A stretch of DNA of 64,000 nt from Candidatus Latescibacterota bacterium (GTDB taxonomy: Bacteria; Latescibacterota; UBA2968), in NCBI GenBank assembly GCA_965214925.1, contig OZ244028.1, forward strand, positions 3,592,205-3,656,204, given 5' to 3'. Below the pieces are notes generated by a model. It had not been told where the DNA came from, ran no database searches, and worked only from the letters and a program-made list of their open reading frames with translations. Positions 1-62,551 of the stretch are shown piece after piece (position 1 is the first letter of the stretch; every line of letters begins with the position of its first letter). A program made the position numbers and the translations under genes.

Positions 1-441
1 ACGGACATTGCAAACCTCAAGCGCAAAGTCGAATCCGGCGGCGATATCGTTATCACACAGCTTTTTTACAACAACGATCACTTTTTTCGCTTTGTCGATC
101 GCGCGCGCGCAGCCTACATCACCGCGCCCATTGTGCCAGGCCTTATGCCCATCCTCTCGGCAGGGCAAATCCAACGCATCGCGTCTTTGTGCGGGGCCGA
201 GATCCCCGTGGACTTGCAGGACCAACTCAACCGCGCCAGAGACGATAAAGACACGGCCGTGCAAATCGGCATTGATCAGTGCATTGCCCAAGCGACCCAA
301 TTGCTCGAACAAGGCGCGCCGGGCATTCACTTTTACGTGCTCAACCAATCCACCCACATGCGCCGCATTATCAACGCCCTTCCCCTGAGCGCGGATGAAA
401 AATTTACGTCATCTGCGGTCAAATCTGCGCTTGGGTTGTGA
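1..441 (+). CDS. metF: 5,10-methylenetetrahydrofolate reductase, C-terminal part; the gene is truncated at the window start
   Basis: Frame-1 translation TDIANLKRKVESGGDIVITQLFYNNDHFF...PGLMPILSAGQIQRIASLCGAEIP matches conserved MetF C-terminal blocks. Stop codon at 439-441. Confidence 0.85.
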   Translation, partial: TDIANLKRKVESGGDIVITQLFYNNDHFFRFVDRARAAYITAPIVPGLMPILSAGQIQRIASLCGAEIPVDLQDQLNRARDDKDTAVQIGIDQCIAQATQLLEQGAPGIHFYVLNQSTHMRRIINALPLSADEKFTSSAVKSALGL

Positions 442-819
442 AAGGACCAGTCTTTTGAATACCAAACTTTTCGACCCGAAATTGATTAACAAACCCACTT
501 CTAACCGATATGCCTTCAAGTAATTTAATGTCTGTGCCATGTGTGCATCTTCCAATGCAGAGATAGCTTTCAATTCTACCAATACTTTTCCTTCGACCAC
601 AAAATCGGCTCTGCGCGTGCCAATGGGCTCTGACAATTCTTTGTAGAAAATGTGTTGCTCAATTTCACGCGCAAATGCCAACCCCGCCTGTGTCATCTCA
701 AACGCCAAGGCCCGCTGATAAATGACCTCTTGGAAGCCATTGCCCAAAAATTTATGCACTTCAAAGGCTGCCCCAATAATTTTTTCCGTTATCTCGCGAT
801 ATTTCAGACTGTTGCTCAT
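409..819 (-). CDS. GxxExxY-family protein (PD-(D/E)XK-like fold)
   Basis: Motif GNGFQEVIYQRAL is the GxxExxY signature. The probable start is the internal MSNSLKY at 819 rather than the upstream extension. Confidence 0.7.
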   Translation of the reverse strand: MSNSLKYREITEKIIGAAFEVHKFLGNGFQEVIYQRALAFEMTQAGLAFAREIEQHIFYKELSEPIGTRRADFVVEGKVLVELKAISALEDAHMAQTLNYLKAYRLEVGLLINFGSKSLVFKRLVLSQPKRRFDRR

Positions 820-842
820 TATCTCTTTTTTCCTCCCCTGAT

Positions 843-945
843 CGCGGATTGTCGCGGATGAAAGGATTGCGCGGATTAAACCCATTCCCTCTGCACGACC
901 CGTAACGTCTAATCCGCGCCATCTGTGTCATCCCCCTAATCCGCG
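843..945. promoter_or_regulatory. Cluster of five 8-bp CGCGGATT/AATCCGCG motifs, three forward and two inverted
   Basis: Forward copies at 843-850, 853-860 and 870-877; inverted copies at 911-918 and 938-945. The cluster lies in the upstream region of the GxxExxY gene and the 3' end of the methyltransferase gene. Related copies occur at 25887-25912. Confidence 0.3.
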
Positions 946-3900
946 ATCCACCGCAGTAATTTCTTCCTCCGTCAGCCTGTATAGCCCATAGACTAATCGA
1001 TCTATCTCCCCTTCCTGCTCCCCGGTGTCCACCGCCGGGTCGTCCGCTTTAGCTTGCAGGATGCGCTCCACCAAGCGAATGAACGGACGCTGCTTTTCGG
1101 CAGGGATTCCAGGGATGGGGATGACTTCAACCGAACTGCGAATCCATCGAGTTACTCCCATTCCAGAATTGAGTGCCGTGTTCCCCATAAACCAAGTGAT
1201 CAGGCGGGAGTTGAGTATCGCGCATAGATACTTAATTGCTTGCCCAGACATTATAAAGCAAGTGTTCACGCAGAACATTTCACCTTCGTTATAGGCAAAT
1301 CGCCCTTGCTCTGTCAGATCCATCCATACCAGCTTTTCTTTGGCAAATTCGTCGTGGTAGGCGCAGTTGCGGAGATTGTAAGGTGTCTTGCCTTTGTCCT
1401 GCCGCTTTTCCAGTCTCTGATAGAACGTGTCCAGATGGGCTTTGATGGCCGGGTAATCGTCAATGTTGATAGCGGGAACATCGCCGTATCCGCTGTGCGT
1501 ATCAATCAGCCATAACCCCGCCCATTGTGCTTGATACTGCTGAATATCCCGGCCGCGTAGCACAGGCTTGATGATCTCCGCGGAGTTCGGGTCTTTGGTA
1601 ACAAGTACCTGCCGGGTCGCATTGTCTATTATAAAAGCATTGTTGTAGCCGGTCTTGATACCCATGTTAATGGACACATCCCATTCTTTTAGCGGCGTCC
1701 CAATGGCCTCTATCTTGTCCATCACGCTCTGTTCGGTAGCCGAAAGCGCACTCCACGGCTTTTCACCTTGTGGTCGGAACTGTCCCCAAAGACTCGCGTC
1801 GGGCGGGAAGGTTTTATCGGTCAGACGGTCCATATCCACGGCCTTGCCGGTCTCGCCACTTTTGCCGTGACGCACGATCAGGATGTTCGTATCCACAATG
1901 GCGTTTTCAAAAACGTCCTTGCCCATTTCCAGCAGTTGCAGCGGCGTATGTTTCTCCGCGAAATAGCGGCGCGTCGCCTTGCCGTATTCCGCCTTTAGCC
2001 AACTGTTGGACGTGATGTAAGACAGCAGGCCGTGCTGCGGCTTCAGCAGTTGGCAACCTTTCTCGTAGAAAAGCTGGTAAACGTCGCCGGTGCGGGCGAA
2101 GGTGGCGTAGCCAGCGTCTTTGTAGAGCCGCCCCAATTCGCCGCGGTTTTTCTGCAACTGGATATACGGCGGATTGCCAATCACCACATCGAAGCCATCG
2201 GCGATGCCAAACATATACTCAGCGTCGAACCAATCCGCCTTTGCGTTCTGATCGTAGGGATCCCAATGCGCGATTTTATTGGCGTCGTCCTCGGGCAGGC
2301 CGGCCGCGTTCAATTCCCTTGCCAATGCCTCGCGCAACCTTTTGTCCTCGTTCTTGCACGCCAGCTTTTGTGGTCGCGTGGTCGCGTGAAAATGCCGCTC
2401 GCGGTTTTCCGCCAGTCTCGTTTTCAGGGTCTCGATCTGTTGACGGAACAAGTCCAGTTGATCCGCATCTTCGAGCTTCAGTAGCGTATTGGCCGCCACA
2501 AAGCGCGTCTCCAGATTGGGCAGCGGCTTGATGCCGAAGTTATCCGCGGCCTCATCTGCTTCCTGCTCAATGGCTAGCGAAATGAAGAAGCGCAACTTGG
2601 CGATCTGACAGGCGATGGACTGAATATCGACACCGAAGATGCTGTTTTGGATCAGGTACAGCTTGCGCCCGAAATCCGAGTCGCGGTAGTGCTCAAAGGT
2701 CTCGCTGATCTCTTTGAGTTCGGCATCGCGATCTTCCCAATCGTCCGTTTCGTACGCCGACCTCGTCCGTTCCATCGCGAGCTCTTTTTGCAACTGCTCC
2801 CAGCGGCTGTTGTCGGGGTCGAGCCGTTTTAAGGCCAAGGTCAGTTTGTGCAACACGCCCATGGGAAACGCGCCAGAACCGACCGCCGGGTCGAGCACCT
2901 TGATCTCGGAAATCGTCCGCATAATCCCTGCCGCTTCGTCTGCCTCAAAAAGTTCATGGGCATCGTTGAACTCATCCTCATAATCCAACAAATAGCGCAG
3001 CCGTTCCTGCCAGAAATCGCGGTCGCCATCATCGGGTCGCGCTTTTTCCGTCAAAAACGCCACCAACGCCTCATCCACCATGTAGTCCACTACGGCGCGG
3101 GGCGTGTAGTAGGAGCCGGTCTGCTTGCGGGCGGTGTCGCGGGTCTCTGGGTTGTAGGCTGCCAACAGGTTCTCAAACACTTTGCCGAGAAGCTCCGGGT
3201 CGAGCGCGACTTCCTGTTCGGCGGGCGTGTTTTCCTCCACCGTGAACTTGTAGCGATTGAATAGGGTGATCAGCCCGTCGGCGCACCCTGAGCCTGCCGA
3301 AGCGTCGTCAAAGAACAGGCGGTTGGGAATGCTCAATTTGTGGTAATGGACGTCGGAAAAGCAGTCAATGCGCCAACCGCCATACGTTGTAGCCTCCTCG
3401 CTGTCCAAGCAGTCGAATAGCCCGCCGTTGATAAAGGGCGTTTGGCAAAACAAGGCCAAGAGCGCGTCCGGGTCGCGCATTTCTTGCTTGTAGCGATAGC
3501 GGGAGAAATCGCGGTGGGTGGCGTTTTTCACTTGGCTAAAACCGCGCGTGTCGATTTCGGTGTTGAGAGTAGCGAAAAACAGGTTTTGCAACACCGCGCG
3601 ATAATAGGAGTCGCCACCGTCGCGGTCATAGTTTTTCAGCAGAGGGCGGATTTGCGCCTCAATGAACAGGGCGTCGGCGATGAGTCCTTTTTCCTTGATG
3701 AACCAGACGAATAGCAGGCGGGTGATGAGACGGATGACGTGTTCTTCGGCGTGCAGAGTTCGCGCTTCGCTGGTCGGGAACCGCGCCTCGTTGACCGCGC
3801 GCTCAAACCATTCGTACAAGTCTCGGTAGAACCGCCGGTTCAGTTCCTCGGTGTCCAAGGCGTCCAGCCAAGCGTCTAACAGGCCGTCAAAATTGTGCGC

Positions 3901-4602
3901 TCTGTCGTGCTTGCTCATCCACCCCAAGCGGTCGTCCAACGCCAAGTCCGCCAGTATGTCGAGATGGGCGCGGTGTGGATCGGCCGGGTCGATCTCCCGT
4001 ATCAGCGACACACTGCCCAGCACATCGCGCTCGGGATCGCGCCGATGCGGGCGGCGGTGAACAAAGGACAGGGAGAGGAGGCTGTCAGCGGTCTTGAACA
4101 GCACCACGGCCGGCATTGGAAATCGCTTGTTGATCTCGCGGGTAAATGCGGCGTATTGGCCGCGGGGGTAGGACGTGCCCTTTAGCTCCACAGCGGCAAA
4201 GAGGAAGCTACGCGCGTTGCCTGTGTCAAAATCGCCCGTGTTGAACAGCGCACTTGAACTGCTGGCGCAGTTGTACCCCGGTGGCGCGGGCGCGACTTCA
4301 TCATCGGTCAACTGAAAAATGAGCCGCACGGATTGGGCGTTCTCGCGGAATGCCTGCTCGGTGTGAACTGCTGGCGCAGTTGTACCCCGGTGGGTGTTTT
4401 CATTGGACGCTGGGAATTGCTCGATAAAGTCATCCGCGCTTCCCGAAAGTGCCACCGTGCGCTCGCTCTGATAGCCGAGGACTTTGAGCAGGGCTTTGCT
4501 ATCCGACAAAAAATCCCCGTGAACTGCTGGCGCAGTTGTACCCCGGTGGGGCACAGCCGCCAAAGCAGACCGAATGCGCGCTATGAGATCGCCATTGCTC
4601 AT
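928..4602 (-). CDS. Type IIG/IIL-like restriction-modification fusion protein (MmeI/PglX-like): N-terminal PD-(D/E)xK nuclease, central N6-adenine methyltransferase, C-terminal target-recognition region
   Basis: Methyltransferase motif I LDPAVGSGAFP and motif IV VIGNPPYIQ. N-terminal GDFDTGN...FAAVELK gives a D...ExK nuclease motif. Total ~1,220 aa. The probable start MSNGDL at 4602 has an AAGGA ribosome-binding site and overlaps the upstream helicase stop as ATGA. Confidence 0.8.
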   Translation of the reverse strand: MSNGDLIARIRSALAAVPHRGTTAPAVHGDFLSDSKALLKVLGYQSERTVALSGSADDFIEQFPASNENTHRGTTAPAVHTEQAFRENAQSVRLIFQLTDDEVAPAPPGYNCASSSSALFNTGDFDTGNARSFLFAAVELKGTSYPRGQYAAFTREINKRFPMPAVVLFKTADSLLSLSFVHRRPHRRDPERDVLGSVSLIREIDPADPHRAHLDILADLALDDRLGWMSKHDRAHNFDGLLDAWLDALDTEELNRRFYRDLYEWFERAVNEARFPTSEARTLHAEEHVIRLITRLLFVWFIKEKGLIADALFIEAQIRPLLKNYDRDGGDSYYRAVLQNLFFATLNTEIDTRGFSQVKNATHRDFSRYRYKQEMRDPDALLALFCQTPFINGGLFDCLDSEEATTYGGWRIDCFSDVHYHKLSIPNRLFFDDASAGSGCADGLITLFNRYKFTVEENTPAEQEVALDPELLGKVFENLLAAYNPETRDTARKQTGSYYTPRAVVDYMVDEALVAFLTEKARPDDGDRDFWQERLRYLLDYEDEFNDAHELFEADEAAGIMRTISEIKVLDPAVGSGAFPMGVLHKLTLALKRLDPDNSRWEQLQKELAMERTRSAYETDDWEDRDAELKEISETFEHYRDSDFGRKLYLIQNSIFGVDIQSIACQIAKLRFFISLAIEQEADEAADNFGIKPLPNLETRFVAANTLLKLEDADQLDLFRQQIETLKTRLAENRERHFHATTRPQKLACKNEDKRLREALARELNAAGLPEDDANKIAHWDPYDQNAKADWFDAEYMFGIADGFDVVIGNPPYIQLQKNRGELGRLYKDAGYATFARTGDVYQLFYEKGCQLLKPQHGLLSYITSNSWLKAEYGKATRRYFAEKHTPLQLLEMGKDVFENAIVDTNILIVRHGKSGETGKAVDMDRLTDKTFPPDASLWGQFRPQGEKPWSALSATEQSVMDKIEAIGTPLKEWDVSINMGIKTGYNNAFIIDNATRQVLVTKDPNSAEIIKPVLRGRDIQQYQAQWAGLWLIDTHSGYGDVPAINIDDYPAIKAHLDTFYQRLEKRQDKGKTPYNLRNCAYHDEFAKEKLVWMDLTEQGRFAYNEGEMFCVNTCFIMSGQAIKYLCAILNSRLITWFMGNTALNSGMGVTRWIRSSVEVIPIPGIPAEKQRPFIRLVERILQAKADDPAVDTGEQEGEIDRLVYGLYRLTEEEITAVDRGLGG
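4255..4549. repeat. Three direct copies of a 30-bp palindromic element TGAACTGCTGGCGCAGTTGTACCCCGGTGG inside the 5' coding region of the methyltransferase gene
   Basis: Copies at 4255-4284, 4364-4393 and 4520-4549. The core AACTGC-TGGC-GCAGTT is a perfect 6-bp inverted repeat. Copies 2 and 3 are translated as HRGTTAPAVH. A fourth copy lies at 26959-26984. Confidence 0.8.
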
Positions 4603-5555
4603 GTCTGATCCTTTGCAATAATCAGCCATGTTACCAATTCAAAATCAACATGGCTCGGTTTTGTGGATTTAGCCGGCAGTCTGAAATCGCGCGAGCCGCG
4701 AATGCCCAATTGTCGGATTTGCCTTGCGGTGTTCGCCCCGCTGATGTGGGCAATGACCGCGTCCAACAATTTGTTGTAACGCGCCATGTCCCGGCCGTTT
4801 TGGGTATCGCTGTCAAACTGATCGCAAAGTCTTTGAAGCGGTTCGGTCTTGCCAACAGCCGCGGATTCAAACAACTCGAGCACCTGTCTGGCATTGGCAC
4901 AACCGTAGCGAATATCGCCTGTCTGCCGTGCCGGCACAGGCAGGCCGCTGTCGCGGATGTACACGGCATAGTACGGATGAATTGGGCTGGCGGATTTTTC
5001 CCGCTTGTCCGCGCCGGCATTGCGCTGGCGCAAAAAAAATATCGCGCCCGAGCGTGCGATGTCGCCCTTCCCGTCGGTTACGGCGTATGATCCGTTGGGC
5101 GTTGCTTCCAGTTCCGCCTTGTTTTTCTTCAAATACCGCAACAACTGGGCAAAAAAGTAATCGAGCGTAAAGTCGCTCATAACGACGCCGTCGGACAACT
5201 CGTCCAAGTCCAGAACCTCTTCGCGCATTTTCTTTAATTGCTCGTCGCGGAAGTTAAGCTCCATCTGAATCTGGTCAGCCGGGTCTTCGTTCAACGGATC
5301 GTCGTCGCCGCTACCCGCCGCGTCCGCCAAAGCCATGCGCGCTTCAACGCGGTTTCGCAGGCGCAAATAGACGTCCATGTCCCGCGTGGGCCAGTAGTTG
5401 ATCATTTGCACCGATGGGTTGCGACTGCCAATGCGGTCAACGCGCCCGAAACGCTGGATGATACGCACCGGATTCCAGTGGATGTCGTAGTTGAGCACGG
5501 TGTCGCAATCTTGCAGGTTCTGTCCCTCCGAAATGCAATCGGTGGCAATCAGCAA
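4599..5555 (-). CDS. SNF2-family helicase, C-terminal (helicase C) fragment; the downstream half of a frameshifted PLD-SNF2 gene
   Basis: LIATDCISEGQNLQDCDTVLNYDIHWNP...QRFGRVDRIG matches SNF2 motifs V and VI. The frame is open upstream of the annotated Met (..ATDIDGEIDLLIATD) and is +1 relative to the upstream ORF. Confidence 0.7.
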   Translation of the reverse strand: MLIATDCISEGQNLQDCDTVLNYDIHWNPVRIIQRFGRVDRIGSRNPSVQMINYWPTRDMDVYLRLRNRVEARMALADAAGSGDDDPLNEDPADQIQMELNFRDEQLKKMREEVLDLDELSDGVVMSDFTLDYFFAQLLRYLKKNKAELEATPNGSYAVTDGKGDIARSGAIFFLRQRNAGADKREKSASPIHPYYAVYIRDSGLPVPARQTGDIRYGCANARQVLELFESAAVGKTEPLQRLCDQFDSDTQNGRDMARYNKLLDAVIAHISGANTARQIRQLGIRGSRDFRLPAKSTKPSHVDFELVTWLIIAKDQT

Positions 5556-5556
5556 A

Positions 5557-7887
5557 TCAATTTCGCCATCTATGTCGGTCGCGGGCGCGCCCGCGCGCCC
5601 GCGGCGCGAAGTTGGTCAAGATCGCGTTGAAATTATTGTCGCCAAACGCGGTGCGCGTGGCGTCGCCACAGACCATCGCCATGTGTATCTCGAGTTCGTT
5701 TGCCAAATCCGCCAAGTTCTCGTAAAGGTATGCCGCCGTGTCCTTGAATGTGGTGAACACCAGCATTTTGCGGTTGGTCTTGCCATCCTCGTCCATCGTC
5801 GGATTTCGCGCCTTGTCCCGAATGCGCGCCTTAATCGCTTCGAGCTTGCCGTCCCGCTCGGGCGTGATCTCGGCGACCTTTTTCCACACCGCGGTCAGAA
5901 CTTTTTTGTCGTTGAGCAAATCCTTCTTCCAGCGGGGCAAATCCAACTCGCGCAGGTGATAGGGCGTGCGCGCCCGATTGATCAGAAACTCCTCGTCGTC
6001 CTCGTCGTCATTCGGGAGGATGTCGGCTTGTTCGTCCAACAGCAGGTTTTGCCCATAGCGGTCTATCTTTTTTAACAGATCGTCAATTTTGCCGACCGTG
6101 CGCCCGAGGGTTTCCGTCAGCGCGTGCGCGGAACTCTCCAAGCGTTTGAGAAAGTTCGTCCGCATCATGCCGATGAGGAATCGCTCGCGGTCCTCCTGAT
6201 TGAACCGCAGTTGCTTTTTTTCATTCGCCAACCGCTTTTTTGCCTCTTCGCCGGTGACATAGCCAGATGGCCGGTAAATGGACAGGGCGAATTGCCCGAT
6301 TTGCTCGGACAAATCCCGATAGGAAAGTTCGCGCGTGACGTCGGTCAGCGGATAGCCATTTTCCGGCGGCAACTGCGTGGGAAAATCGCCGATGCGGTGC
6401 ATTTCCTCGGCATAGAACGTCTCGATCTGTCGCCGCGAGCGCGCGATGGAAACGCCGCCCAACAACAACAAAAAATCAGCCCCCAGCGAATCCAACAACT
6501 CGCCCTTGTCTTTTTTTTTCGCGTTGGACTCCCAGGCCTTGAACTCCTTTTGCGCCTGTCCGAGCAAGGTGCCGATATGTCCAATGCCCAGACTTTCCCG
6601 GAACACATCCTCGCGCTTTTCGGTCATCAGATAAATCTGATTGCGGAGGTCGATGAGCGAGGTATTGACCGGCGTCGCGGAAAGCATCAGCACCTTGGTT
6701 TGCGTGCCTTCTTTGATCACTTCCTCCAACAGCCGCGAGTAGCGGCTGTGGCGAATTTTGCCATCATCGTCCAATCGGGGCTTGGTATCATTGCGGAAGT
6801 TGTGCGATTCGTCAATGACCACCACATCGAGATTGCGCCAGTTGAAATTTGCCAGATCAATATCGCCGGCTCGTCCCCTGCTGCGAGACAAGTCCGTGTG
6901 CGACAACAACGTGTAGCCAAAGCGATCCGCGGCAAAAGGATTGTGGGCATGGGCGTTATACACCGGATATAGCGCCCAGTTTTCGCGCAGCTTTTTGGGG
7001 CACAAGACCAGCACGCGCTCGTTTCGCAACTCAAAGAACTTGATCACCGCCAACGCCGTGTAGGTCTTTCCCAAGCCCACGCTGTCGGCCAAGATGCAGC
7101 CGTTGTGCCGCAACAAACGGGCGATCGCGCTTTTGGCGCCGTCTTTCTGAAAGCCGTACAGCGCGTTCCAAATCCGCGTGTCGTACAGGTGCGTATCCTC
7201 GAGTTGGCTTTCGCCCTTTTGTCTGTCTTCTATATCTGCCCGAAACAACTCGTAGAGCGTTTTGTAATAGATAAATTCCGGCGCGCAGTCTTTGCCGATT
7301 CGCGCCAGCGCGGCCAACACCTCCTTTTTGACATCCACAGTCAACGCGCGGTCTGCCCACAGGTCGTCAAACCACGCGCGCAGTTCCGCGCAGATTTCCG
7401 CGTCGCAGGTCGCCAGGTTGATTTCCATATTTGCGCGCGTCCCCCCGCCCAAGCCGCTGCGCGTGAAGTTGGAACTGCCGACCACCGCTGCGCCGCGGTT
7501 GGGCGATTCCGCGAGATACATCTTGCCATGCAGAAAATTGGATTTGCCGACAGAGCGGATTTTGACCCCTTTGCCGCGCACCCATGCGGCGCATTGCCGC
7601 GCCACATATTTCTGCTGCAACGCGCGATTCGGCGAGAGTCTGCCTTCGGTCAGGTCAAAAAATTTCCGCGCGCGCTCGCCGGGGTCCAACTCGCCAACCG
7701 ATGCCGGATCTCCAAAGAGAAACCGCACATCCCCGACGCGGGCGAGCGCGTCCTTCAGCAATTCATAGCCGTAAATGGTAAAATACGCGGAAACCAGCCT
7801 GAATACCTTCGCGGAGGGCAAATGTCCGCGCAGATAATCCGCGACCCGCTCGCGGCGATTGTCCAGAATGTGTTCGTATTTTTGCAT
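5557..7887 (-). CDS. PLD-family nuclease domain fused to an SNF2 helicase N-terminal ATPase domain; the upstream half of the frameshifted gene
   Basis: HKD motif HGKMYL...GSSNFT. Walker A GLGKTYT, DEAH-like VVIDESHNFRN and motif III LMLSATPV. Start MQKYEHIL at 7887 follows a GGGGGAG ribosome-binding site. The ORF terminates inside the GC repeat at 5581-5608. Confidence 0.75.
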   Translation of the reverse strand: MQKYEHILDNRRERVADYLRGHLPSAKVFRLVSAYFTIYGYELLKDALARVGDVRFLFGDPASVGELDPGERARKFFDLTEGRLSPNRALQQKYVARQCAAWVRGKGVKIRSVGKSNFLHGKMYLAESPNRGAAVVGSSNFTRSGLGGGTRANMEINLATCDAEICAELRAWFDDLWADRALTVDVKKEVLAALARIGKDCAPEFIYYKTLYELFRADIEDRQKGESQLEDTHLYDTRIWNALYGFQKDGAKSAIARLLRHNGCILADSVGLGKTYTALAVIKFFELRNERVLVLCPKKLRENWALYPVYNAHAHNPFAADRFGYTLLSHTDLSRSRGRAGDIDLANFNWRNLDVVVIDESHNFRNDTKPRLDDDGKIRHSRYSRLLEEVIKEGTQTKVLMLSATPVNTSLIDLRNQIYLMTEKREDVFRESLGIGHIGTLLGQAQKEFKAWESNAKKKDKGELLDSLGADFLLLLGGVSIARSRRQIETFYAEEMHRIGDFPTQLPPENGYPLTDVTRELSYRDLSEQIGQFALSIYRPSGYVTGEEAKKRLANEKKQLRFNQEDRERFLIGMMRTNFLKRLESSAHALTETLGRTVGKIDDLLKKIDRYGQNLLLDEQADILPNDDEDDEEFLINRARTPYHLRELDLPRWKKDLLNDKKVLTAVWKKVAEITPERDGKLEAIKARIRDKARNPTMDEDGKTNRKMLVFTTFKDTAAYLYENLADLANELEIHMAMVCGDATRTAFGDNNFNAILTNFAPRARGRARDRHRWRN

Positions 7888-9541: not shown

Positions 9542-10792
9542 TCAGATGTCAAATTTACGCAGGATGAGGACGGCGTTGTGACCGCCAAAGCCAAAGGAGT
9601 TGCTGATGGCGATTTCAACGGGCATTTCCCGCGCGTCATTGGGCACGTAATCGAGATCGCATTCTGGGTCGGGTGTTTCGTAATTGATGGTGGGCGGCAC
9701 GACATCGCGGTGAACCGCTAGGGCCGTCGCAATCGTTTCAATCGCGCCCGAAGCACCCAACAGATGTCCGGTCATGGATTTTGTCGAACTGACCGCGAGC
9801 TTTTTGGCGCGCCCGCCAAATACAGATTTGATCGCGGCTGTTTCTCCCGGATCGCCCACGGGCGTGGATGTGCCGTGCGCGTTGATATAAGACACGTCTT
9901 CCAAATTGACCTGGGCTTGGCGCAGCGCGCGGCGCATGGCGCGCGCGCCCCCCTCGCCGCCGGGCGCCATATCGGTAATGTGATACGCGTCGCCGGTATA
10001 ACCCGCGCCCACCACTTCGGCGTAGATCGTGGCACCGCGCTGTCTGGCGCGTTCGAGTTCTTCCAAAACGAGCCCGCCCGCGCCTTCGCCAATGACAAAT
10101 CCATCGCGGTCTGCATCAAAGGGCCTGCTGGCGCGCGCGGGCGCGTCGTTGCGCGTCGAAAGGGTTCGCGCGGAAGCAAATCCACCGACGGACATCGGGG
10201 TAATCGCGGCTTCGGCCCCGCCCGTGATCATGACATCGGCTTCGTCATCCCAAATTTCGCGGGCCGCATTGCCAATGGCATGGGCTGCCGACGCGCAGGC
10301 GGTGACCGTGGTGTAGTTGGGGCCTTTGGCGCCCAGGTAAATAGATACCTGACCAGCGGACATGTCCGCGATCATCATCGGCACAAAAAGCGGGCTGATG
10401 CGCCGGGGGCCCCCATCGCGGTAAGCATCGTACTGGTCTTCAAAGGTTTTAATGCCCCCAATGCCCGATCCAAAGACAACCCCGACGCGTTCGGCTCGTT
10501 CGGCGGCGAGGTCGAGACCCGCATTTTCAACAGCCTGAACAGACGCGGCAATGGCGTATTGCGTAAAGAGATCCATGCGACGCTGGCTTCGGCGATCCAT
10601 GCCGTAGCGCGCGGGATCAAAGTCTTTGACTTCCGCGGCAAATTGCACGCGGAAATTGGTGGCGTCAAATTTTGTGATGGGGCCAACACCTGTTCGTCCG
10701 TTGCACAAGGCGTCCCAATAGCGCGCTGTGGTATTGCCATTGGGCGCGAGTGTGCCCATGCCGGTGATGACCACTCTGCGTTGTTTGTTCAC
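9542..10792 (-). CDS. fabF: 3-oxoacyl-ACP synthase II
   Basis: VVITGMG..., active-site cysteine region and C-terminal GFGGHN, typical of KAS II. Confidence 0.9.
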   Translation of the reverse strand: MNKQRRVVITGMGTLAPNGNTTARYWDALCNGRTGVGPITKFDATNFRVQFAAEVKDFDPARYGMDRRSQRRMDLFTQYAIAASVQAVENAGLDLAAERAERVGVVFGSGIGGIKTFEDQYDAYRDGGPRRISPLFVPMMIADMSAGQVSIYLGAKGPNYTTVTACASAAHAIGNAAREIWDDEADVMITGGAEAAITPMSVGGFASARTLSTRNDAPARASRPFDADRDGFVIGEGAGGLVLEELERARQRGATIYAEVVGAGYTGDAYHITDMAPGGEGGARAMRRALRQAQVNLEDVSYINAHGTSTPVGDPGETAAIKSVFGGRAKKLAVSSTKSMTGHLLGASGAIETIATALAVHRDVVPPTINYETPDPECDLDYVPNDAREMPVEIAISNSFGFGGHNAVLILRKFDI

Positions 10793-10877
10793 AGAATGAC
10801 CTCCTGAAGGCTTGAGAGGTGTTCTTGCACCCGTTGATCAAGGGGCGAGAACCCTTCCTCAGCCCTCAGTTCCCAAA

Positions 10878-11117
10878 TTAAGTCAAGCGTTCGTCTAAAT
10901 ATTTGATGGCATCGCCGATTGTTTCGAGCTTCTCGGCGTCTTCATCGGGAATTTCCATGTCAAATTCTTCTTCAAAAGCCATGACCAGTTCGACCGTGTC
11001 GAGCGAGTCCGCGCCCAGATCGTCGATAAAATGCGCGTCGGAATTGACACTGTCGGCATCGACGCCGAGTTGATCGACGATCAGGTCAGTAACTTTTTGT
11101 TGAATATCATCGGCCAT
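10878..11117 (-). CDS. acpP: Acyl carrier protein
   Basis: [19 protein letters not shown] phosphopantetheine-attachment motif. Start at MADDIQQ. Confidence 0.9.
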
Positions 11118-11227
11118 GTGATCCTCCTTAAAAAATAAAACAGTACAGAGTAACGCGATAAAAATAGAAATACTCCACGGTTTGTGAAATGCGACTAATC
11201 GCAACATTGCTTCATCGAAAGCGATGT

Positions 11228-11974
11228 TTACATTGCCATGCCGCCATCGACGACAACGACCTGTCCGGTGATATAGGCCGCGTCGTCAGACGCGAGAAAC
11301 GCCACAGCGGCCGCGATATCTTCGGGGGTGCCGAGTTTGCCTAGTGGAATTTGCGCGATCAATTGTTCTCGCGTTTTTGCGTCGAGTTTGTCGGTCATGT
11401 CCGTTGGAATAAACCCGGGGGCAACCGCGTTGGCCGTAATATTGCGACTGCACAATTCTCTGGCGACCGATTTGGTCAGGCCAATCAGCCCGGATTTGGA
11501 CGCGGCGTAATTGATCTGCCCGGCATTGCCCATGAGGCCGACGACCGATGAAACATTGATGATGCGACCGGTTCGCGCTTTCATCATGGGGCGCGCAACG
11601 GCTTTGATGCAATGGTACGCACCTTTGAGATTGACGTCGAGGACGGCATCCCACTCCTCGTCTTTCATACGCATCAACAAATTGTCGCGCGCGATGCCCG
11701 CGTTGTTGACGAGGACATCCAGTTTACCCCATGTGGCGAGGACGGTTTTGACCAGTGTATCAACGGCTTCGGCATTGGACACATCGGTTTGTCGCGCGAT
11801 GGCCTCTCGACCTTCCGCGCGAATTTTTTCGGCCACGCCTTCTGCGGCTTCCGCGCTTTGACTAGCGCAAATGGCGACATGGGCTCCTTCGCGCGCAAGG
11901 CGCAGGGCAATGGCCTCGCCAATGCCGCGAGACCCGCCGGTTACAAGAGCTGTTTTGCCTGTGAGTCGGTTCAT
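11228..11974 (-). CDS. fabG: 3-oxoacyl-ACP reductase
   Basis: TGGSRGIG Rossmann motif and SDR YxxxK (YAASK); located in the fab cluster. Confidence 0.9.
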
Positions 11975-25954: not shown

Positions 25955-26969
25955 GTCAACCCATTGGACAATCATTGCAAATCCCGTTTCGGGACGGGGC
26001 CGTGCAAAACGCATGGGGGAGTTGGTCGCGGATTTATTGCACAATCGAGGTGTAGGTGCTGACCTGATGGTGTCGGAGGCACCGGGCGAGTGTGAACGCC
26101 TCGCGCGAAAAGCATTGGCGCGGGGCGTGCGACAGGTTGCAGCGTGTGGCGGGGATGGCACAGTCCATGAAGTGGTCAACGGCCTCGCAAATTCAGACGC
26201 TGTTCTAGGGATTGTGCCCTGTGGCCGAGGGAATGATTTGGCGCGCGCATTGGATCTGCCCAAAGATGTGAACCGCGTGGTCAATACGCTGGTGCATGGC
26301 GCGGATCGCGCGATTGATCTGGGAAAAATGAACTGCTGTCGCAATGGGACACCGCTTGGCGATCGGTTTTTTGCGACCATTGCGAGTTTGGGATTCGACA
26401 CCGCAGTCGCACAAAGGACGCGGTCTCAGTCACCTCGCTCTCGAGCTTTGGGATGGGGCGGAACCGCATCTTATGGACTGGCGATTTTGCAAACGCTAGT
26501 GGGATATCGGTCTCCGATGGTGCGCTTGAGAGGAGATTTTGGTATTTTTGAAGGGCGTATTCTGCTGGTTGCAACGGCAAACGCGCCGTTTTATGGGAGC
26601 GGAATAAAAATTGCCCCTCACGCCGTGGTCGACGACGGAATGCTGGACGTGTGCATTGTGGCAGATGTGCCGCGCCGGACGGTTTTGCGACTCTTTTCAA
26701 GCGTGTATTCCGGCGCACACGTCGACCACCCTGCGGTGCATATCGCGCGAACCAAAACCTTGCAGATTGAAGCGGTGGATACCTGCGATAGCCGTTCAGC
26801 CGATGATCCCATGTGGGTATTTGCCGATGGCGAACCCATGTGTGAGATTCCTGCAAAAATCGAGGTCGTTCCCAACGCGCTGACTGTGAAAACAATGCGA
26901 ATGTACGACGCGAGACGCAAGAGGCGAGAGGCCCCCAAAACCCCTGCCTGTGCGCCGATGAACTGCTGA
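25955..26969 (+). CDS. Lipid kinase, diacylglycerol-kinase catalytic-domain family (YegS/BmrU-like)
   Basis: ANPVSGRG, ACGGDGTVHEV and GRGNDLAR blocks. The start could be 25917 or 25955. The stop TGA lies inside repeat copy 4. Confidence 0.75.
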
Positions 26970-26984
26970 CGCAGTTGTACCCCG
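26959..26984. repeat. Fourth copy of the 30-bp palindromic element (variant TGAACTGCTGACGCAGTTGTACCCCG)
   Basis: 24/25 identity to the core of the copies at 4255-4549. The G->A variant creates the TGA stop of the lipid kinase gene. Confidence 0.75.
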
Positions 26985-38240: not shown

Positions 38241-39128
38241 TCACGCCCTCGGATGCGCTTGTCGATAGGCTTTTTTTAAGCGTTCAACGCTGACGTGCGT
38301 ATAGACCTGTGTGGTTGAAAGGCTCGCATGACCGAGCAACTCTTTCACGGCATTTAAGTCTGCGCCCGCATCCAGCAGATGGGTTGCAAAGGCGTGGCGC
38401 AATGCATGGGGCGACAAAGACCGCCCGGTCGCTTTGCCGAGGTATCGGGTTACGCGCCCTTGAATACCGCTTGGACTGAGCGGGCGTCCGGATCGCGCCA
38501 AAAACAGGTGTTGTCGGTCGGTCGTCTGTTGAGAAATCAGTTCTCCTCGACGCGCCAGATACGCCCCCAATGCTGCCCGAGCAGGTTCACCGAAAGGAAT
38601 CAACCGCTCTTTGTTGCCCTTGCCGACAACCCGCACGAGTTTGCCGGTCAGGTCCAGCGCATCGAGTTTGAGGCCCGCGAGTTCGCGCAAGCGAATCCCC
38701 GCGCTGTAAAACAACTCCAATATCGCCCGGTCGCGCAATCCCAACGCGGTATTGGGCGATGGCATGGACATCGATCGCGCCACCTCTTCGACATCCATAT
38801 AAACGGGCAATATTTTGTCTTGCTTAGGCGGGCGCACATTGAGCGCTGGATTTTGCTCCAAATCGCCCAAATTGCACAAATAACTCAAAAACGTGCGTAC
38901 CGCGGCCAGCTTTCGGGCAACAGACCGCCGACCAAATCCCCTGTTGTGCAAAAAGCCCAAAAACCCCCGAACCGCGTTGCGATCAATCTGTTGCGCGCGG
39001 GTCACATCACACGCGTGCAAAAAAGCAGCGAATTGATCCAGATCCGTGGCATAAGCCGTACATGTGTGATCCGACAATCGCCGCTCGCGCGACAGATGGG
39101 TGAGGAATTGGGCAATGGTTGATCGCAT
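38241..39128 (-). CDS. xerC: Tyrosine site-specific recombinase XerC/XerD
   Basis: HALRHAFATHLL...LLGHASLSTTQVYTHV catalytic R-H-R-Y pattern. Adjacent to topA. Confidence 0.85.
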   Translation of the reverse strand: MRSTIAQFLTHLSRERRLSDHTCTAYATDLDQFAAFLHACDVTRAQQIDRNAVRGFLGFLHNRGFGRRSVARKLAAVRTFLSYLCNLGDLEQNPALNVRPPKQDKILPVYMDVEEVARSMSMPSPNTALGLRDRAILELFYSAGIRLRELAGLKLDALDLTGKLVRVVGKGNKERLIPFGEPARAALGAYLARRGELISQQTTDRQHLFLARSGRPLSPSGIQGRVTRYLGKATGRSLSPHALRHAFATHLLDAGADLNAVKELLGHASLSTTQVYTHVSVERLKKAYRQAHPRA

Positions 39129-39291
39129 GGCAATGATCAAAATCCTCTCGCTTCTCAGGCCGGGATGGCAATGTGAATGACATCTCGTTCAATGGGAAGT
39201 ATGGACTGGGCAAATGAGTCGCCGCGGTCGGCGAACTCGTTGGTATATTGAATAAACGCGGGGTGAACGTGACAGCACAATCGGGGGACAC

Positions 39292-62183: not shown

Positions 62184-62551
62184 GGGGGCGACATGGTTTC
62201 GACGGGGGTGGAGCGGTGATGGCCGCGTGTCGAGGTGCCCGATTCCCTCGTAAAACAATTGGGAAAAAACGCAAGTGCGGACGATAACACGTACGCAATG
62301 GCTGCCTAACCAACCGTTACGCAGTCCGTTCTGCTAGGCCTCGCCTGCGTGGTCTGGACAGAGCGCCGACGAGAGCAGGCTGGTTCGGGGGTTTCCGCTC
62401 GAGGCCCTCCGGGCGAAATAAAATCGGGCTGGCATCTCAGCGCCCCTGTCTGTTGGGGCGCGGGGTGTGAGATTCCATAAATAGACTACACACGTAGACG
62501 CCATTGTCAAACTGCTTTCGGACGCGGGTTCGATTCCCGCCGCCTCCACCA
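62184..62551 (+). ncRNA. ssrA: tmRNA (SsrA)
   Basis: 5' GGGGGCGACAUGGUUUCGACGGG and 3' T-arm GGUUCGAUUCCCGCCGCCUCCACCA form a tRNA-Ala-like acceptor. Internal tag frame ..ASADDNTYAMAA ends at a TAA stop. Confidence 0.85.

Follow-up and report, generated by a model that had tools for sequence, protein, structure and literature searches.

A frameshift between motifs IV and V in a PLD-nuclease/SNF2-helicase gene adjacent to a type IIG-like methyltransferase gene of a Candidatus Latescibacterota bacterium

In a 64-kb stretch of DNA from a Candidatus Latescibacterota bacterium (the window), a gene on the minus strand that encodes a PLD(HKD)-nuclease/SNF2-helicase fusion is present as two reading frames that are split at about 5575-5586. 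This raises the question of whether the gene was inactivated by a mutation, whether it is intact in the organism and only appears broken in the assembled sequence, or whether the shift is part of a switch or is overcome during expression. The break point lies within the second RecA-like domain (RecA2), at the boundary between helicase motifs IV and V. The upstream part (5557..7887, minus strand) encodes 776 aa from its ATG and is identical to database protein P0052. It contains the N-terminal PLD/HKD nuclease domain, the SNF2 RecA1 domain with the motifs GLGKT, DESH, and SAT, and the first half of RecA2. The PLD domain at the N-terminus is of the HxK type (FLHGKMYL...GSSNFT), and all of its near-invariant columns are kept. 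Past the shift, the upstream frame continues for nine out-of-frame codons until it reaches a TGA at 5559-5557, and the C-terminal end of this ORF reads ..NFAPRARGRARDRHRWRN or, in a longer form, ..NFNAILTNFAPRARGRARDRHRWRN. The frame one base over reads ..APATDIDGEIDLLIATDCISEGQNL.. (longer form ..GRAGAPATDIDGEIDLLIATDCISEGQNLQD..). This downstream part (4599..5582, minus strand, +1 frame, stop at 4601-4599) is open for 327 codons and comprises (A)TDIDGE, motif V (LLIATDCISEGQNL), motif VI (QRFGRVDRIG), and the C-terminal domain. In the database, it is a separate protein, P0374, with 318 aa from TTG 5555.

The domain assignments followed the same division. With the upstream part, Pfam detected PLDc_2 (8.7e-12, residues 36-183) and the start of SNF2-rel_dom, and with the downstream part, it detected Helicase_C only, covering the last 48 profile positions (63-110). 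When the two parts were joined, Helicase_C was matched over profile positions 13-110 with 60 bits, an extent that equals the match in the intact homologue P0001. As the joined parts regained the Helicase_C extent that is divided between the two ORFs, the frameshift is real in the sequence. All motifs of the SNF2 core (I-VI) are thus there, distributed over two frames, and no single polypeptide carries the complete set. The original prediction had described an SNF2 helicase ORF that switches to the frame one nucleotide over and there runs into motif V. The identity of the helicase and the course of the downstream frame were both right, and the frame switch itself was borne out by the two readings NFAPRARGRARDRHRWRN* and APATDIDGEIDLLIATDCISEGQNL together with the split of Helicase_C.

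The comparison with orthologous loci that had been proposed along with the frame switch was carried out, and all 80 of the related loci fetched from reference genomes were intact and in frame at the position equivalent to 5575-5586. In more than 100 helicase homologues with 65-81% identity, the gene is one uninterrupted ORF of 1072-1110 aa. Identity reaches 81% for the closest helicase and 89% for the closest TopA, which stems from a different species. By its TopA, the organism falls close to metagenome-assembled Latescibacteria. In a set of 109 homologues, the upstream part kept 266 of 266 near-invariant columns and the downstream part 101 of 103, giving 367 of 369 for the whole helicase. The identity to relatives was equal on both sides of the shift, and the catalytic motifs were all kept in both halves. 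An excess of substitutions downstream of the shift, which would be a sign of decay, was not found, as the two deviations at conserved columns compare with a homologue mean of 2.3 and are thus typical of intact homologues. A further lesion in the downstream half was not found either. Since the conserved columns deviate no more than in intact homologues, the event is either recent or artefactual. The protein clusters of both halves and of the methyltransferase encoded next to them had one member each, all from the same contig of 4,699,647 bp, and a metagenome scan for strain variants, using the exact junction flanks with a variable gap, gave 0 hits.

The position of the surplus could be narrowed down by the linker from FAP to IDLL (NFAP to IDLLIATD), which is 40 nt long here and 33, 36, 39, 48, or 54 nt long in related loci. 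The upstream frame fits the homologue consensus NFAPRARGR(A/T/S) through R-A-R-G-R-(A), corresponding to codons 5601-5584, and the downstream frame fits the consensus from (T)-D-I-D-G-E, starting at 5579. As the fit ends at the former and resumes at the latter, the surplus base or bases lie within about 5575-5586 on the minus strand, between the Ala codon 5586-5584 and the Thr-Asp codons 5579-5574. The surplus could be either a single nucleotide, the removal of which gives a linker of 13 aa, or the four nucleotides CGCG at 5583-5580. When CGCG was removed in silico, the resulting linker RARGRATDIDGE had 12 aa, which is the commonest length among the nearest relatives, and it aligned without gaps to RARQRGNGIDGE of the homologue P0006. 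A shift placed further upstream, which would result in the reading GRAGAPATDIDGE, was ruled out, as the consensus RARGR is then lost.

The original prediction had also placed the switch inside an 8-bp GC tandem repeat. The duplication is indeed present: a period-8 run with 2.4 copies of CGGGCGCG extends over 5585..5603 on the minus strand, with complete copies at 5601-5594 and 5593-5586. A run of this length is expected 0.03 times per 64 kb and was observed twice, and it occurs in 0.3% of random GC-only 30-mers. However, the surplus sits at the 3' border of the repeat, where it belongs to the right arm of a palindrome. As the two CGGGCGCG 8-mers code for the conserved RARGRA in the upstream frame, and as deletion of one copy results in a linker of 32 nt in which the frame is still not restored, the 8-bp duplication is not the lesion. 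The palindrome is a perfect GC-only palindrome of 16 bp, CGCGGGCGCGCCCGCG, at 5580..5595, the right arm of which is completed by the surplus bases. As single-stranded DNA, it is predicted to form a 10-bp hairpin with -17 kcal/mol, which is ordinary for its composition (z -1.3), and about 6% of GC-only 30-mers contain a palindrome of this kind by chance. Quasi-palindrome-templated frameshifts are a classical mutational class. As in these frameshifts, an inverted repeat that was imperfect becomes a perfect 16-bp palindrome through the surplus bases; what sets the present case apart from the classical ones is that it is deduced from one sequence. An insertion templated by a hairpin or by strand switching (quasi-palindrome correction), rather than 8-bp slippage, may therefore have produced the surplus bases, which is suggestive only, because of the chance of about 6% for the palindrome and the unexceptional hairpin energy.

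The partner gene (928..4602, minus strand) encodes a protein of 1224 aa, an Eco57I-type gamma N6-adenine methyltransferase (NPPY) with a TaqI_C target-recognition domain, which also has a putative N-terminal restriction-endonuclease-like domain and a helical spacer. Its start codon, ATG at 4602-4600, shares bases with the stop codon of the helicase gene in an ATGA overlap (4602-4599), and the start at 4602 agrees with the N-termini of homologues and with database protein P0134. Pfam recognized the Eco57I methylase and TaqI_C domains, and the methyltransferase and recognition parts matched REase_MTase_IIG at 9e-141. A period-8 run of 19 nt, similar to that in the helicase gene, is found at 2370, where it is harmless within the intact methyltransferase ORF. 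Single-chain type IIG/IIL enzymes such as MmeI and DrdV combine an N-terminal PD-(D/E)XK nuclease, a helical spacer, a gamma methyltransferase, and a recognition domain. Because the architecture of the partner appears to be type IIG/IIL-like, with an N-terminal nuclease-like domain, the partner is probably not a plain methyltransferase.

As one of three options, next to slippage-prone switching and an assembly error, the original prediction had named a pseudogenisation of the translocase that leaves an active methyltransferase. In agreement with this, the partner ORF is open, NPPY is kept, and 293 of 294 near-invariant columns are retained. However, three identical copies of a 30-nt palindromic repeat element (4255-4284, 4364-4393, and 4520-4549, minus strand) are inserted in frame into the first approximately 125 codons of the gene. 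These insertions are absent from the methyltransferase homologues and coincide with low-confidence loops in the structure model of the partner. A CRISPR-like array was ruled out for these repeats, as they are irregularly spaced (79 and 126 nt) and located within an ORF. In addition, an arginine that is invariant in 112 homologues is exchanged to glutamine (GRDIQ[R]Y, codon 1537-1539). Due to the three loop insertions and the R-to-Q exchange at the invariant Arg, methyltransferase activity is likely, albeit not assured, so that the idea of an active methyltransferase left behind finds only partial support.

As to the identity of the module, the best PADLOC model for the broken gene was C3a139 'HKD+Snf2', which was matched at 4e-64 by the upstream half and at 2e-32 by the downstream half, the latter covering profile positions 684-921. 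PDB sequence matches of the motor were Snf2 and RapA. The helicase and methyltransferase genes are adjacent and on the same strand, and the pair is kept in most of the 80 related loci, which belong to Poribacteria, Latescibacterota, Binatia, Chloroflexota, and others. Across metagenome-assembled genomes (MAGs) of the four named groups, mostly long-read metagenome assemblies, the pair is 65-81% identical; among the MAGs carrying the pair, a sponge origin is confirmed for the MKWU contigs only. Directly downstream of the module lies a gene for a GxxExxY / PD-(D/E)XK_3 protein (409..885, minus strand). This association is loose: among the first 40 listed related loci, only two, L006 and L022, had a Gxx match. 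The other side of the module is occupied by a housekeeping operon of the order fabH-fabD-fabG-acpP-fabF-rnc-lplA-like.

Pairs of this kind have been noted before. The pairing of HKD-helicases with the coding sequence of a type IIG-like (Cj0031/Eco57I-type) methyltransferase as genomic context is listed in Table 3 of PMC9881135, which cites CDD cd09178 for fusions of HKD(PLD) with SNF2/SF2 helicases, and HKD+SF2 fusions count as restriction-like components (PMC10853773). The gene pair in the window resembles HKD(PLD)-SNF2 fusions with a type IIG-like partner in that the PLD domain is N-terminal and followed by SNF2, and in that the partner is adjacent and translationally coupled, but its helicase gene is frameshifted. 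We found no experimental study of the two-gene PLD-SNF2 plus methyltransferase form in the literature, and the family is known only from comparative genomics.

In its functional logic, by which a nuclease and an SF2 motor are combined with a gamma-class N6-adenine methyltransferase and a recognition domain, the module is like the ATP-dependent type ISP (LlaGI/LlaBIII) and type III (EcoP15I) restriction enzymes. However, type ISP enzymes are single polypeptides with an Mrr-type nuclease, and in type III systems, Res has a C-terminal PD-(D/E)XK nuclease and Mod is of the beta class. The module is composed of separate proteins, its nuclease is PLD-type and N-terminal, and its motor is Snf2-like. 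Weak matches to the DrmD and DrmMI profiles are reminiscent of Class 1 DISARM, and DISARM also has a PLD nuclease (DrmC). This assignment was rejected, as the halves score 67 and 64 bits versus the NCBIfam cut-off of 610. No gene for DrmA or DrmB (DUF1998) was found near the module, which is flanked by the fab genes, rnc, and the lplA-like gene. Membership in BREX, MANTIS/Gao_RL, or Hma was ruled out on architecture and scores.

The explanation that we favor, with moderate confidence, is that the two genes form an ATP-dependent restriction-modification-like module, the motor/nuclease gene of which has suffered a recent inactivating frameshift mutation. In the intact module, the methyltransferase protein would recognize its target via TaqI_C and mark the host DNA, and the PLD-nuclease/SNF2-translocase partner would travel along unmarked DNA and cut it in the manner of type I, III, and ISP enzymes. 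In the window, a surplus of 1 nt or of CGCG in the GC-only linker of variable length that separates motifs IV and V shifts the frame and leads to the stop nine codons further on; the added bases complete the 16-bp palindrome, which fits a hairpin- or strand-switch-templated insertion. We infer that the frameshift is recent because the downstream half shows no other lesion. The truncated product would retain the PLD domain and RecA1, but as it lacks motif V, motif VI, and the C-terminal domain, the motor should be dead and ATP-driven translocation should be lost. With the methyltransferase gene still open, DNA would probably be modified but no longer restricted by the helicase-dependent route. 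In this respect, the locus resembles frameshift-inactivated or phase-variable restriction genes, in which an indel within a repetitive tract has disrupted the restriction-type gene and the modification gene is open. If the mutation is real, the ATGA coupling to the methyltransferase would hold only if ribosomes start anew at TTG 5555.

A real mutation is supported by the fact that the module is also damaged elsewhere and that the three repeat-element insertions occur in the very same copy. Frameshifts at other positions were found in the helicase gene in 5 of 80 related loci and in the methyltransferase gene in 4 of 75, and with these numbers (5/80 versus 4/75), there is no support for the helicase being lost more readily than the methyltransferase in the related loci. 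In two genomes, a truncated module remnant of 165 aa adjoins IS3-type transposase genes, and one of these genomes also encodes an 88%-identical TopA.

The alternative that survives best is that the gene is intact in the organism and that sequencing or polishing introduced a spurious insertion of 1 nt or 4 nt at the GC-only palindrome, which we regard as possible, if doubtful. The high conservation suits this alternative as well: the shift is the only lesion, the near-invariant helicase columns are kept with equal identity on either side, and a consensus error would also yield a single lesion amid otherwise perfectly conserved halves. Moreover, the site is 100% GC and hairpin-forming, GC-only palindromes are hard sequencing templates, the source appears to be a chromosome assembled from a metagenome, the related records are long-read MAGs, and ENA contig names like ctg..._164x_l suggest long-read metagenome assemblies. 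In such assemblies, an occasional indel per approximately 100 kb is plausible. However, about 27 other genes with Pfam hits in the 64-kb window had complete domain coverage and none of them was split, and the general indel noise in the window is therefore low. The runs at the site are only 3 nt long, whereas long-read indel errors concentrate in longer homopolymers. The same module also has other real-looking, strain-specific changes, and the decay of homologous modules in other genomes includes an IS insertion, which is impossible as a base-calling error.

In contrast to a frameshift mutation, a phase-variable switch would imply that the CGGGCGCG units slip during replication, with three copies (48-nt linker, RARGRAGAPATDIDGE) as the ON state and the observed two copies as the OFF state. 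The addition of one 8-bp unit in silico indeed restored the frame, linkers of 48 nt exist in some more distant homologues (about 50% identity), and the period-8 run is longer than expected by chance in random sequence. However, whereas gain of a unit restores the frame, loss of a unit does not, and a three-copy allele would exceed the linker length of every near relative. Known phase switches use longer tracts; those of type III mod and type IIG genes consist of long homopolymers or many units and are strain-variable. Here, only 2.4 units are present, and their existence is explained by coding constraint, since the peptide that they specify is the conserved RARGRA. A comparable tract was found in no homologue, nor was a frameshift at this site, and the second period-8 run of the window, at 2370, has no consequence for the methyltransferase ORF that contains it. 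Since only the gain of a third unit restores the frame, since the tract is short, and since no homologue has one, we consider a slippage switch very improbable, even though phase switching is well known for restriction genes, an example being Cj0031, a type IIG enzyme (cited in PMC9881135). The slippage-prone switching that had been brought forward in the original prediction thus did not hold up well. We give similarly little credence to the more general idea that the GC-only tract is an ON/OFF mutational device for the restriction motor of a sponge symbiont, be it by gain and loss of 8-bp units or by a reversible palindrome-templated indel; if this were true, the population would be a mix of restricting and modification-only cells.

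Expression despite the shift, either by programmed +1 ribosomal frameshifting or through two polypeptides, the second initiated at TTG 5555, which together would rebuild an active motor, is the least credible explanation: TGA 5559-5557 and TTG 5555 are only 1 nt apart (TGA-N-TTG, 5559-5553), so that termination-reinitiation is possible and would keep the ribosome flow to the ATGA-coupled methyltransferase, and the linker is a region of variable length, but the break falls inside the RecA2 fold, a clear Shine-Dalgarno sequence was not found before TTG 5555, neither a slippery heptamer nor a prfB-like CUU-UGA context was seen in the 57-nt overlap, and as no homologue is split or shifted at this site, it is not a conserved recoding site. 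Even taken together, a slippage switch and recoding are very improbable at best.

The locus is therefore best described as a commonplace inactivation of a defence gene or as a sequencing error in it, and not as a new switch. For annotation, this means that a single disrupted gene, not two proteins, should be recorded for the two ORFs. With the favored explanation of a recent mutation, one more restriction-type gene would have been lost with its methyltransferase gene remaining open, in a symbiont lineage with a fast turnover of defence modules, which by itself matters little. Independent of the frameshift, the pair of a PLD-SNF2 protein and a type IIG-like methyltransferase is worth experimental attention.

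The methyltransferase gene contains three identical copies of a 30-nt repeat element, CCACCGGGGTACAACTGCGCCAGCAGTTCA (window 4255-4284, 4364-4393, and 4520-4549, minus-strand coding), all of which are in-frame insertions within the first ~125 codons. Two of the three are translated to HRGTTAPAV, and the remaining one is read in a different frame as PPGYNCAS. These insertions are absent from all 112 aligned methyltransferase homologues, and their positions correspond to the low-confidence loops of the methyltransferase model. A fourth, intergenic related copy with one mismatch is found at 26961-26978. The core of CCACCGGGGTACAACTGCGCCAGCAGTTCA was also detected in two sponge-metagenome contigs from Aplysina aerophoba (MKWU01; L081 933-957 and L082 2063-2087), where it sits within an intergenic two-hairpin element of ~110 nt (fold z -4.9) that is located after stop codons. 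Each intergenic copy of the element is preceded by an 8-bp tandem duplication. The repeat resembles a small element of the REP/MITE type that has spread into coding sequence.

Besides the period-8 run in the helicase gene, there is a second such run of 19 nt (GTGGTCGC x2.4; window 2370-2388). Its location within the methyltransferase ORF, which is intact, demonstrates that short tandems of this kind can exist without disruption of the frame. At the bracketed position of GRDIQ[R]Y, a motif in its recognition domain, the methyltransferase carries Gln (1537-1539, minus strand) versus Arg in 112 of 112 aligned homologues, an exchange that may affect DNA binding or activity. In two related loci, L019 (17649-18377) and L056 (9251-9568), the region for the C-terminal recognition domain is present again, in additional partial copies downstream of the full methyltransferase gene. 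These may be spare specificity cassettes, in the manner of the systems with programmed inversion that PMC9881135 describes for Cj0031-like enzymes.

Damaged modules also occur in other genomes. In two long-read contigs from ENA, of 5.93 Mb and 4.48 Mb (L083 and L084, both 10001-11731), the homologous helicase is reduced to a PLD fragment of 165 aa that is directly followed by IS3-type transposase genes, a clear case of decay in nature of a module of the type in the window. The genome of the 5.93-Mb contig is related to that of the window, as their TopA proteins are 88% identical. Among species-representative genomes, frameshifts at various other positions were found in the helicase homologues of L003, L037, L040, L068 (with six frame changes), and L075, as well as in the methyltransferase homologues of L017, L033, L037, and L060; these are either pseudogenes or long-read assembly errors.

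The window also encodes a tmRNA (62184-62551, plus strand; Rfam 197 bits; tag peptide ADDNTYAMAA) and, adjoining topA, a XerC/D-type integrase (38241-39140, minus strand). Based on the related loci L001-L022 and on matches to the helicase and methyltransferase proteins, the module proteins are 65-81% identical among the distant phyla Poribacteria, Latescibacterota, Binatia, Dehalococcoidia, and Caldilineaceae, while the TopA of the window clusters with Latescibacteria only. This discrepancy points to a horizontal spread of the two-gene module between these lineages, which seem to live in association with sponges.
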